Below, one piece after another: positions 25,130 to 26,530 of a stretch of 64,000 nt of DNA. The position numbers and the translations under genes were made by a program. The first letter of the stretch is position 1, and each line of letters begins with the position of its first letter. The notes beneath the pieces are model-generated. The model was not told where the DNA came from, did not search any database, and worked only from the letters and a program-made list of their open reading frames with translations. The stretch lies in NCBI RefSeq assembly GCF_056712565.1, contig NZ_CM160072.1; one strand, 5' to 3'.

Positions 25130-25180
25130 ATGACGCTCCTGCGTAATGAATCAAAGATAATGCTGTATGATAAAAAAATG

Positions 25181-25196
25181 CTGGATAGATATCCAG
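25181..25196. promoter_or_regulatory. LexA (SOS) box of the ruvAB operon
   Basis: CTGGATAGATATCCAG palindrome about 50 bp upstream of ruvA; matches the ruvAB SOS box as recalled. Confidence 0.75.
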
Positions 25197-25404
25197 CGAA
25201 GGATGAAGAAAACTTGCGAGGTGTCTCGATGATCTGAAAAATGGCGCAGTATAATTTATTCTACAGATTATATTGGAAGCAAATATTTAAATATTACATA
25301 TTCAGCGAAGAAATGTGTAATAAAAATACACATTGCGCCCCCTGAAAAAAATAAATTTTTTATGCTATTACGTATATTCATATCTATTTCAATGGAATGA
25401 CAAC

Positions 25405-26007
25405 GTGAATATTAATTATCCTGCTGAATATGAAATTGGTGATATCGTCTTTACATGTATAGGTGCTACCTTATTTGGTCAAATATCAGCTGCATCAAAT
25501 TGCTGGAGTAATCACGTCGGGATCATTATCGGTCATAACGGTGAAGACTTTCTGGTTGCAGAAAGCCGTGTTCCCCTCTCAACCATCACTACGCTATCCC
25601 GTTTTATTAAACGCTCTGCTAATCAACGCTATGCTATAAAGCGATTAGACGCCGGGCTAACAGAACAACAAAAACAACGAATTGTTGAACAGGTTCCCTC
25701 CCGGCTACGCAAACTTTACCACACCGGTTTTAAATACGAATCTTCGCGCCAGTTCTGTTCAAAATTTGTTTTTGATATTTATAAAGAGGCGCTATGTATT
25801 CCGGTGGGTGAAATAGAGACATTTGGAGAATTGTTAAATAGCAATCCGAATGCAAAACTCACTTTCTGGAAATTCTGGTTCTTAGGTTCTATTCCGTGGG
25901 AGCGTAAAACCGTCACGCCAGCCAGTTTGTGGCATCATCCGGGTTTGGTGTTGATTCACGCGGTGGGAGTTGAAACGCCTCAGCCTGAACTGACCGAGGC
26001 GGTATAA
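25405..26007 (+). CDS. yebB: YebB, YaeF/YiiX-type permuted papain-like (NlpC/P60 superfamily, C92) protein
   Basis: Start taken at GTG 25405 (200 aa, [13 protein letters not shown]...); track ORF starts at upstream ATG 25333. AT-rich N-terminus and upstream region. Confidence 0.82.
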
Positions 26008-26008
26008 C

Positions 26009-26530
26009 TTAACGCAGTCGCCCTCTCGCCAGGTTCAGTCGCGATTCGCTCATTTGCATCGCATTCTGACTAACGTGGCAGTGGGTGATGGCAATCGCCA
26101 GCGCATCGGCGGCATCCGCCTGTGGATTAGCGGGCAGTTTCAGCAAGGTGCGGACCATATGCTGCACCTGGCTTTTTTCGGCACTACCAATACCTACCAC
26201 TGTTTGCTTTACCTGACGTGCCGCATATTCAAATACCGGCAATTCCTGATTCACCGCCGCCACAATCGCCACGCCGCGCGCCTGCCCCAGTTTCAGGGCT
26301 GAGTCAGCGTTCTTCGCCATAAAGACCTGTTCAATGGCGAAATAATCAGGCTGGAATTGGGTGATGATTTCCGTCACGCCCGCATAGATGAGCTTCAGAC
26401 GAGACGGTAAATCATCCACTTTGGTGCGTATGCATCCGCTACCCAGGTAGGACAGTTGCCTGCCTACCTGGCGGATGACGCCATAGCCGGTCACGCGCGA
26501 ACCCGGGTCAATGCCGAGAATAATAGCCAT
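26009..26530 (-). CDS. ruvC: Holliday junction resolvase RuvC
   Basis: Start taken at second Met (173 aa); N-terminal [15 protein letters not shown]. Confidence 0.95.

Follow-up and report, generated by a model that had tools for sequence, protein, structure and literature searches.

The ruvA-ruvC interval

This study concerns the gene yebB, the AT-rich DNA upstream of it and its junction with ruvC, in a stretch of 64,000 nucleotides from contig NZ_CM160072.1 (NCBI RefSeq assembly GCF_056712565.1). The whole stretch is referred to here as the window, and its first nucleotide is position 1. The yebB gene lies between ruvA and ruvC, on the strand opposite to both of them (Table 1). A second gene, yobI, is found in the ruvA-yebB spacer; it codes for a small protein of 21 codons and was overlooked in the initial annotation of the window, which took the spacer as promoter DNA. 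Over 25100-26050 the sequence and the Escherichia coli ATCC 11775 chromosome agree at 100% identity, and this segment is contained in 5,425 of 5,426 complete E. coli genomes. The gene order in K-12 MG1655 is identical to that of the window. The genes yebB and yobI, the LexA box and the ruvC 3' end have all been annotated or published before, and the locus is largely ordinary.

The region 25200-25450 had been described as markedly AT-rich, which windowed G+C calculation bears out. The G+C content of 25200-25449 is 30%, against a window mean of 50.6% (z = -4.3); this places it in the lowest 0.7% of 250-nt windows and makes it the third-lowest G+C region within the 64 kb. The yebB gene itself has 43% G+C, compared with 54-56% for ruvA and ruvC. 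Other low-G+C stretches of the window (62300-62950, 55200-55800 and 36800-37400, with 26-36% G+C) are at least as extreme as the yobI-yebB region. A scan of 24900-26300 against Rfam found no known RNA family, the single match being a sub-threshold chance hit to a eukaryotic long non-coding RNA model.

The best explanation of the locus has four parts, and jointly we consider them likely to hold. The interval would be a low-G+C insert in an originally direct ruvC-ruvA junction, and it holds two known genes. From its sequence and a structural model, YebB is predicted to be a cysteine hydrolase of the YaeF/YiiX (C92) family, cytoplasmic and with a circularly permuted NlpC/P60 fold. The palindromes upstream of yebB are part of the yobI coding sequence, a feature of one strain's allele rather than a conserved protein-binding site. 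The 3' end of yebB would overlap the terminator of ruvC.

Table 1. Features of the ruvB-yebC region of the window and, below them, of related loci (L numbers, each in its own numbering).
Feature	Position	Strand	Basis or remark
ruvB	23499-24509	minus	RefSeq annotation
ruvA, Holliday junction branch migration protein, first gene of the LexA-controlled ruvAB operon	24518-25129	minus	Open reading frame (ORF) list and RefSeq annotation (ATCC 11775)
ruvAB promoter (-35 TGGATA 25195-25190, -10 TATCAT 25172-25167)	25167-25197	minus	Promoter scan
LexA operator CTGGATAGATATCCAG	25181-25196		Between ruvAB -35 and -10, inside 8+8 palindrome 25180-25197
AT-rich variable segment, E. coli clade only	25217-25390		blastn of spacer against 23 loci, alignments, composition
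yobI	25268-25333	minus	RefSeq annotation, translation, NCBIfam
14-bp AT palindrome AATATTTAAATATT	25282-25295		Inside yobI codons 13-18
Inverted repeat AATGTGTA-N7-TACACATT	25312-25319 and 25327-25334		Perfect 8-bp arms
Probable overlapping divergent weak sigma-70 promoters	25340-25404	yebB plus, yobI minus	yebB CTGAAA-17-TATTAC; yobI TTGTCA-15-TATGAA
yebB, GTG start, 200 residues	25405-26007	plus	RefSeq annotation, Pfam, NCBIfam
Rho-dependent termination peak for ruvC read-through, antisense to yebB	25896	minus	K-12 1946742; about 110 nt inside yebB
ruvC terminator hairpin	Stem 25976-26001, 3' end 25971	minus	RNA fold, conservation, K-12 Term-seq
ruvC, Holliday junction resolvase	26009-26530	minus	ORF list and RefSeq annotation
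Candidate terminator-like hairpin with six U, about 140 nt past the yebB stop, inside ruvC antisense	26146-26179	plus	Scan match
yebC	26565-27305	minus	RefSeq annotation
ruvA-yebB spacer ORFs	L003 2006-2692; L005 1905-2591; L006 1319-1999 and 2102-2797; L009 1551-2246; L010 2084-2908; L022 1368-2054 and 2083-2937; L024 2203-2973; L030 4313-4975
Extra gene between yebB and ruvC (293-residue and 331-residue ORFs)	L009 3563-4444; L010 3638-4633
yebB and ruvC in the loci of the synonymous-divergence contrast	L022 and L003: yebB 3001-3603, ruvC 3605-4126
yebB away from the ruv genes	3001-3580 in Proteus (L011-L015), Providencia (L018, L020) and C. amalonaticus (L017)
NicO-family gene at the ruvC-ruvA junction, Dickeya dadantii	L032 4317-5348
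IS1 upstream of yebB, E. coli 58-3	L028 1-185
Operator palindrome and T run in ruvC-ruvA spacers	L031 4039-4070; L033, L034, L035, L036, L037

YebB is a member of the permuted papain-like enzymes

YebB matches the Pfam family Peptidase_C92 (PF05708, E=1.4e-45), with residues 10-184 aligned to positions 3-165 of the 166-position model. It also belongs to the NCBIfam equivalog NF008547, 'YebB family permuted papain-like enzyme', scoring 404 bits against a cutoff of 227. These two matches, together with the fold match given below, confirm the earlier assignment of yebB as a 200-residue permuted papain-like (C92 / NlpC-P60) protein; its function, described then as uncharacterised, is still so. A search of 1.84 billion cluster representatives gave 675 relatives.

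The residues H37, E53, S54, Y105 and C118 are at least 90% conserved among 59 diverse full-length homologues. The catalytic order in YebB is permuted, His, Glu and Tyr preceding Cys. C118 aligns with the catalytic-cysteine motif RQYCS of YiiX, an E. coli paralogue, and Y105 aligns with the tyrosine of the YiiX 'KPYD' motif (Tyr115 in YiiX). The active site of these proteins has been defined as a Cys-His-polar triad, with the tyrosine stabilising the P1 carbonyl (Xu 2011). An AlphaFold2 model of YebB has a predicted local distance difference test score (pLDDT) of 94.1, the last 13 residues (188-200) being disordered at about 54. Foldseek aligns this model with YiiX (PDB 2IF6) at E=1.3e-15, with a template modelling (TM) score of 0.81-0.90 and a root mean square deviation of 2.2-2.4 Å, and with BcPPNE of Bacillus cereus (PDB 3KW0) at E=2e-6 and a TM score of about 0.6. 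The ratio of nonsynonymous to synonymous substitution rates (dN/dS) of yebB is 0.04-0.08 in five comparisons, from which the ruvA rows of four other Escherichia species were excluded; such values indicate purifying selection. A PADLOC scan of YebB gave no defence-system match.

Because of the family match, the conserved active site, the model and the purifying selection, YebB is probably a working Cys-His-Glu hydrolase or acyltransferase, with an acyl-amide or related lipid-linked substrate assigned by analogy. In the catalytic scheme that we propose Cys118 would be the nucleophile, His37 would activate it, Glu53 would orient the histidine and Tyr105 would stabilise the P1 carbonyl. The likeness to YiiX and BcPPNE suggests that the substrate would most likely be an acyl (lipid)-amino acid or lipid-peptide amide, or a related acyl ester. 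A fatty acid is bound in YiiX, and a lipid-amino acid amidase activity has been proposed (Xu 2011). Against this assignment it has to be said that no biochemical activity is known for YebB, and that the lipid-amide substrate would follow only from the ligand densities of YiiX and BcPPNE.

YiiX is the nearest solved structure. It belongs to the same Pfam family, is found by phmmer over residues 10-183 (E=1.8e-17) and has the same permuted order of His, Glu, Tyr and Cys. However, its identity to YebB is only 26%, and the NCBIfam YiiX model (NF007458) scores YebB at 79 bits, below its cutoff of 216. The disordered tail of 13 residues that overlaps the ruvC terminator also distinguishes YebB from YiiX, and of the two only YiiX has ligand data.

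A more distant comparison is with BcPPNE and with the eukaryotic acyltransferase-phospholipases of the LRAT and H-RAS-like suppressor type. These proteins share the permuted NlpC/P60 fold and the Cys-His-polar triad, and they have a hydrophobic S1 pocket that suggests lipid-linked substrates. BcPPNE differs from YebB in the low TM score and an identity of 16%. Within the permuted group the LRAT-type proteins are a clade apart, and their acyl-transfer chemistry is proven experimentally whereas the activity of YebB is a prediction. Bacterial permuted NlpC/P60 proteins with reported acyl-transfer or lipid-targeting roles include LnsA of Staphylococcus aureus and the Tox-Act1 type VI secretion effectors, which illustrate what an active site of the YebB type could do. 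LnsA acts on lipoproteins with a partner, LnsB, whereas YebB has no partner gene or signal peptide. Tox-Act1 proteins are encoded beside, or fused to, antibacterial secretion systems (for example type V and type VI systems, T5SS and T6SS), and YebB has no such secretion or immunity context.

Origin of the probable insert

Outgroup loci were found through homologues of RuvC. In Rahnella, Xenorhabdus, Edwardsiella, Hafnia, Yersinia ruckeri and Erwinia, ruvC is followed directly by ruvA at a distance of 73-142 bp. Two other lineages carry different cargo at this junction: in Dickeya dadantii it is a gene of the NicO family (nickel/cobalt transporter-like), and in a Klebsiella oxytoca-like locus, which has no yebB, it is an unrelated ORF of 220 residues. 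This ORF is 45% identical to an ORF of Superficieibacter. Within the Enterobacteriaceae, yebB occupies the same position in at least eight genera, across which RuvA, RuvC and YebC are 91-100% identical and YebB is 69-96% identical. The G+C content of yebB is 5-17 points below that of ruvA and ruvC in all 15 syntenic loci. An earlier suggestion that yebB was acquired horizontally thus gains support from its low G+C, from the direct ruvC-ruvA arrangement of six outgroup genera and from the different cargo elsewhere.

The spacer between ruvA and yebB is itself variable, measuring 267-1,784 bp in the 15 loci that have yebB between ruvA and ruvC. Homology of the E. coli spacer to that of other genera ends at about 25197-25216, just past the LexA box, and restarts at about 25391, some 14 bp before the yebB start. 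In place of 25217-25390 the other genera have 1-1.8 kb of unrelated ORFs. Three families of unannotated ORFs, of about 228-284 residues, recur in the ruvA-yebB spacers of other Enterobacteriaceae; they are co-oriented with ruvA and some have hydrophobic N-termini. The five cargo ORFs scanned with NCBIfam belong to no family, and PADLOC gave no credible match for the neighbouring cargo ORFs. In two loci an extra gene lies between yebB and ruvC, so the tight junction of these two genes is not obligatory.

Synonymous divergence (dS) of yebB is discordant with that of the adjacent ruvC in two Escherichia loci, being 1.02 against 0.22 in Escherichia sp. E1V33 and 0.85 against 0.41 in E. albertii. 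In E1V33 this points to allele replacement of yebB. Because of the discordance, the sequences suggest that yebB alleles have been exchanged jointly with the neighbouring cargo. Proteus, Providencia and Citrobacter amalonaticus have yebB away from the ruv genes, at 70-74% identity, and in Proteus and Providencia its G+C content (0.36-0.41) differs little from that of the DNA around it. These homologues could represent a donor-like lineage for the yebB of Enterobacteriaceae.

Several observations weigh against an insertion, some of which would equally suit the view that yebB is an old resident of the locus, with a low G+C content and fast evolution that reflect weak expression and relaxed constraint, and that it was lost where ruvC and ruvA are now adjacent. 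Weak expression and mutation bias, instead of foreign origin, could account for part of the low G+C. No integrase or transposase is present in the annotation or ORF list of the region and no flanking repeats were noted, although no dedicated search for direct repeats was made. The search for related loci needs exact 8-residue words shared with the query, so that the taxonomic spread of yebB is underestimated; Salmonella, for example, has a gene named yebB. The constant position of yebB in the eight or more genera fits long residence, as do the similar yebB and ruvC dS values for K-12 and the two nearest species (0.14/0.15, 0.30/0.24 and 0.44/0.34). We nevertheless regard long residence as quite unlikely. 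The outgroup genera with direct adjacency (six of six) come from five other families and would demand many independent precise losses, unrelated cargo is found at the same junction in Dickeya and the Klebsiella oxytoca-like locus, and in Proteus, Providencia and C. amalonaticus yebB occupies a different site. The dN/dS range given above speaks against relaxed constraint, and in E1V33 and E. albertii the dS of yebB is discordant with that of ruvC. Insertion is therefore favoured, because of the direct adjacency in six genera, the other cargo in two lineages, the G+C deficit and the dS discordance. The ruvC-ruvA junction emerges as a small recurrent insertion site in Enterobacterales.

Promoters of the divergent region

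The divergent ruvA-yebB region was reported to hold the ruvAB LexA box, and it does, between the -35 and -10 hexamers of the ruvAB promoter; the same hexamers have been given for ruvAB by Shimada 2014 (PMC3946193). The predicted LexA box (CTG-N10-CAG) is invariant in seven aligned loci and is present in all eight outgroup loci examined. A 2009 network study (PMC2689187) predicted yebB as a LexA target from the ruvAB LexA site. Direct control of yebB by LexA is unlikely, because the only LexA box is that of ruvAB, and yobI and a distance of about 150 bp separate it from the inferred yebB promoter.

Genomic systematic evolution of ligands by exponential enrichment (SELEX) in K-12 gave a peak for the RpoD holoenzyme in the yobI/yebB spacer, with the hexamers CTGAAA-17-TATTAC for yebB and TTGTCA-15-TACAAA for yobI, and H-NS was flagged on the ruvA-yobI spacer (Shimada 2014, PMC3946193). 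A SELEX peak for the RpoS holoenzyme is also present in the yobI/yebB spacer. The block 25340-25404 is conserved within Escherichia, and the -35 hexamer of yobI abuts the yebB start codon. The two genes are probably transcribed divergently from these weak, overlapping promoters. A point against this part of our reading is that both promoters derive from in-vitro SELEX peaks and hexamers only. None of the four gene names appears in the SMRT-Cappable-seq supplements, and the Cappable-seq supplements have no yebB or yobI start in either genome coordinate version.

The palindromes upstream of yebB lie within yobI

YobI is one of the E. coli small proteins found by screens for ribosome-binding sites and conservation. 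The product encoded in the window belongs to the NCBIfam equivalog NF038179 (61 bits, cutoff 33), and the gene has a Shine-Dalgarno sequence, GGGGG, 6 nt upstream of its ATG. It is annotated in nearly all E. coli genomes sampled. Relative to K-12 there are three nonsynonymous differences and one synonymous difference, so that this strain's allele departs from the K-12 family member at three of 21 residues (C2Y, A10T and F15L). In Escherichia sp. MOD1-EC7003 the start codon is ATA, and a second sister Escherichia species has no yobI ORF. On these sequences yobI looks young, weakly constrained, fast-changing and confined to E. coli proper.

Some side observations concern the yobI start and its surroundings. 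The start (25331-25335, minus strand) reads AUGUG (Cys2) here and AUGUA (Tyr2) in K-12; AUGUG starts are reported to be tied to initiation in overlapping frames in E. coli (PMC9841429). A few E. coli strains have an IS1 element in this region; in one of them, strain 58-3, it is inserted upstream of yebB and no yobI is annotated. The match H12 (NZ_OZ547461.1), at 39% query coverage, also has IS1 upstream of yebB, and its gene is annotated 'YiiX/YebB-like N1pC/P60 family cysteine hydrolase'.

Both palindromes reported upstream of yebB are present. The 8-bp inverted repeat is at 25312-25334 as described, and the truly symmetric part of the AT palindrome, which was placed at about 25281-25295, is the 14-mer 25282-25295. 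Both fall within the coding sequence of yobI, on the strand opposite to yebB. The inverted repeat spans yobI codons 1-8, and its right arm holds the complement of the yobI ATG (25333-25331). To estimate the chance level, 2,000 dinucleotide-preserving shuffles were made of the 207-nt AT-rich segment, allowing a loop of up to 12 nt. A perfect arm of at least 8 bp occurred in 9.7% of the shuffles and one of at least 7 bp in 30%, so the dyad symmetry is no better than chance for a sequence this AT-rich (P ~0.10 for the inverted repeat).

The symmetry is also not conserved. In K-12 the inverted repeat reads AATGCGTA...TATACATT, with 6/8 positions paired, and the AT palindrome reads AATATTTTAATATT, with imperfect symmetry. 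In strain UPEC-774U 7/8 positions of the inverted repeat pair, and in alignments with two sister Escherichia species it is destroyed. The 46-mer around it is at least 99% identical in 130 of 5,385 E. coli genomes, and a perfect inverted repeat is possible in at most 406 of the 5,385 (7.5%).

It had been proposed that yebB may have its own repressor site, to be judged by whether the palindromes recur at other yebB loci. They do not recur, the whole segment 25217-25390 being absent outside the E. coli clade, and the proposal does not stand. An operator in the inverted repeat, the AT palindrome or both, for a dedicated repressor that controls a horizontally acquired yebB, has in its favour the perfect dyad symmetry some 70-120 bp upstream of the yebB start, the binding of RNA polymerase holoenzyme to the region in vitro and the H-NS flag on the adjoining spacer. 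The yebB promoter hexamers inferred from SELEX (25343-25371) come after both palindromes on the way to the yebB start. Such an operator is extremely improbable, since the repeat sits inside yobI and across its ATG, is at chance level, is imperfect in K-12 and UPEC-774U, is lost from both sister species, can be perfect in few E. coli genomes and goes missing with its segment from the other yebB loci. A site of the CRP, FNR or NsrR type was considered for the inverted repeat and rejected on half-site spacing and lack of conservation. The TGTGT and ACACA of the repeat are 9 nt apart, whereas the CRP consensus has a half-site spacing of 6 nt.

The inverted repeat might instead act in RNA, in a hairpin that sequesters the Shine-Dalgarno sequence and AUG of yobI, with YobI made only once the structure opens, for example on heat or other stress. 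RNA folding predicts a hairpin in the 5' region of the yobI mRNA that has the inverted repeat at its top and the Shine-Dalgarno sequence paired to codons 8-9, GGGG with CUUC, with the AUG inside the stem. Its energy in this strain is -15.3 kcal/mol (z -4.9, with none of 200 shuffles as stable). In K-12 the outer stem remains (UCAGGAGG / CUUCACUGA) and the energy is -9.7 kcal/mol (z -2.6), and the outer arms TTCAG...CTGAA are present in all five aligned E. coli alleles. The NCBI product name for YobI, stress response small protein, also agrees with such a switch. We consider it unlikely even so: the upper stem is unconserved and has two mismatches in the K-12 allele, a GGAGG site close to Phe-Phe (UUCUUC) codons may by itself account for the outer pairing, and yobI shows no clear purifying selection in its three nonsynonymous changes to one synonymous. 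As part of the yobI coding sequence, the inverted repeat would at most add stability to an mRNA hairpin in which the ribosome-binding site of yobI is hidden.

The yebB-ruvC junction and the probable ruvC terminator

The stop codons of the two convergent genes were said to be 1 bp apart, and this is exact: the yebB TAA is at 26005-26007 and the complement of the ruvC stop, TTA, at 26009-26011. Beginning 7 nt past the ruvC stop, the ruvC transcript has a hairpin with a G+C-rich stem of 10 bp followed by UUUC (-21 kcal/mol, z -2.6). Across 13 loci the hairpin is kept, two of its pairs showing compensatory changes. Since the Klebsiella oxytoca-like locus, which lacks yebB, has it as well, the hairpin is a feature of ruvC and not of yebB. 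The U run is UUUC(A/C/U)AC in Escherichia and UUUUU or UUUUAC in two other loci, and a consensus terminator scan does not call it. The hairpin is antisense to yebB codons 191-199, in the disordered tail of YebB.

Published K-12 data, transferred to the window through the indel-free yebB alignment and not measured in the window's own strain, place a ruvC 3' end here. Term-seq found a 3' end at 1946817(-), described as 'primary ruvC, antisense yebB' (Adams 2021, PMC7815308). This corresponds to window position 25971, a point 5 nt beyond the stem that lies 36 nt within yebB. A Rho-dependent region peaks at 1946742(-), with a Rho score of 7.8 and P=1.2e-29 (Adams 2021, PMC7815308, Supplementary file 2). 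In K-12, ruvC transcripts stop at this point within yebB, and Rho halts the rest of them further in. The gap of 1 bp arises because the yebB frame runs through the ruvC terminator and halts just before the ruvC stop. Two points count against this account. The U tract, UUUC, is poor, and the hairpin may be a stabilising or processing stop for RNA terminated by Rho and not a true intrinsic terminator. The conservation of the hairpin is also partly confounded by yebB coding on the opposite strand.

The arrangement resembles that of other convergent pairs with a terminator in the coding sequence of the neighbour, in having a G+C-rich hairpin after the ruvC stop, a mapped 3' end and a Rho back-up. 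It differs from convergent pairs with overlapping 3' ends in its weak U tract and in that the hairpin is wholly inside the last nine sense codons of yebB. The yebB strand has no U tract at the hairpin, and by sequence there is therefore no obvious bidirectional terminator. It had been suggested that transcription of yebB must run antisense into ruvC, which may be so; what the K-12 Term-seq tables of Adams 2021 document is the opposite, ruvC RNA that runs into yebB, and they record no 3' end for yebB. A terminator-like match downstream of yebB (26146-26179) was examined as its terminator and rejected. Its z of -1.06 is not above chance, its stem is not maintained in several genera and no Term-seq 3' end falls there; the conserved Glu-Lys-Ser codons of RuvC account for its U run.

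The convergent transcription could have a regulatory role, induced yebB transcripts reading into ruvC and lowering RuvC by polymerase collision or duplex RNA. If this were true, yebB expression would be linked to Holliday junction resolution. In favour of such a role, the stop codons are too close for a terminator to fit between them, the shared hairpin lacks a U tract on the yebB strand, ruvC RNA in K-12 covers at least the last 36 nt of yebB, and the RpoS-holoenzyme SELEX peak suggests conditional expression. The K-12 Term-seq tables, however, show no plus-strand 3' end and no RNA antisense to ruvC, which suggests very low transcription of yebB in LB and M63. The ribosome-binding site of yebB is weak and its start is GTG, an untranslated antisense RNA would be an easy target for Rho soon past the stop codon, and the loci with a whole gene between yebB and ruvC show the overlap to be dispensable. 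A regulatory role is on this evidence very unlikely.

The LexA operator as a possible terminator

On the minus strand the LexA palindrome (25180-25197) is followed by seven T, and a terminator scan scores it as a terminator-like hairpin. A similar arrangement is found in the six genera in which ruvC and ruvA are adjacent. There a run of six or seven T comes after the operator palindrome (GGCTGGATAT.CATCCAGCC), which lies 5-53 nt past the ruvC stop and folds to -10.6 to -16.5 kcal/mol. In Rahnella, the only one of these spacers scanned with the consensus tool, it is the sole terminator-like match.

These sequence features raise the possibility, still a doubtful one, that the ruvAB LexA operator doubles as the ancestral terminator of ruvC. 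Such an element would stop ruvC read-through inside the ruvA promoter and so leave ruvAB to SOS control alone. In Enterobacteriaceae the insertion of the yebB islet would have parted ruvC from the operator, and ruvC would then have used the other hairpin, now overlapped by the yebB frame. The operator hairpin of E. coli would go on shielding ruvAB from the transcription of yobI and from ruvC transcription that escapes Rho.

Implications

The locus illustrates how readily an AT-rich spacer can be misread. A spacer taken for promoter DNA can conceal an annotated gene of 21 codons, and perfect 8-bp palindromes arise in such spacers by chance about once in ten. The tail of yebB over the ruvC terminator, and the LexA operator as a possible terminator, are modest points on how inserted genes are fitted into an operon. 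YebB itself would be a conserved E. coli enzyme with an intact active site, under strong purifying selection and with no known substrate.

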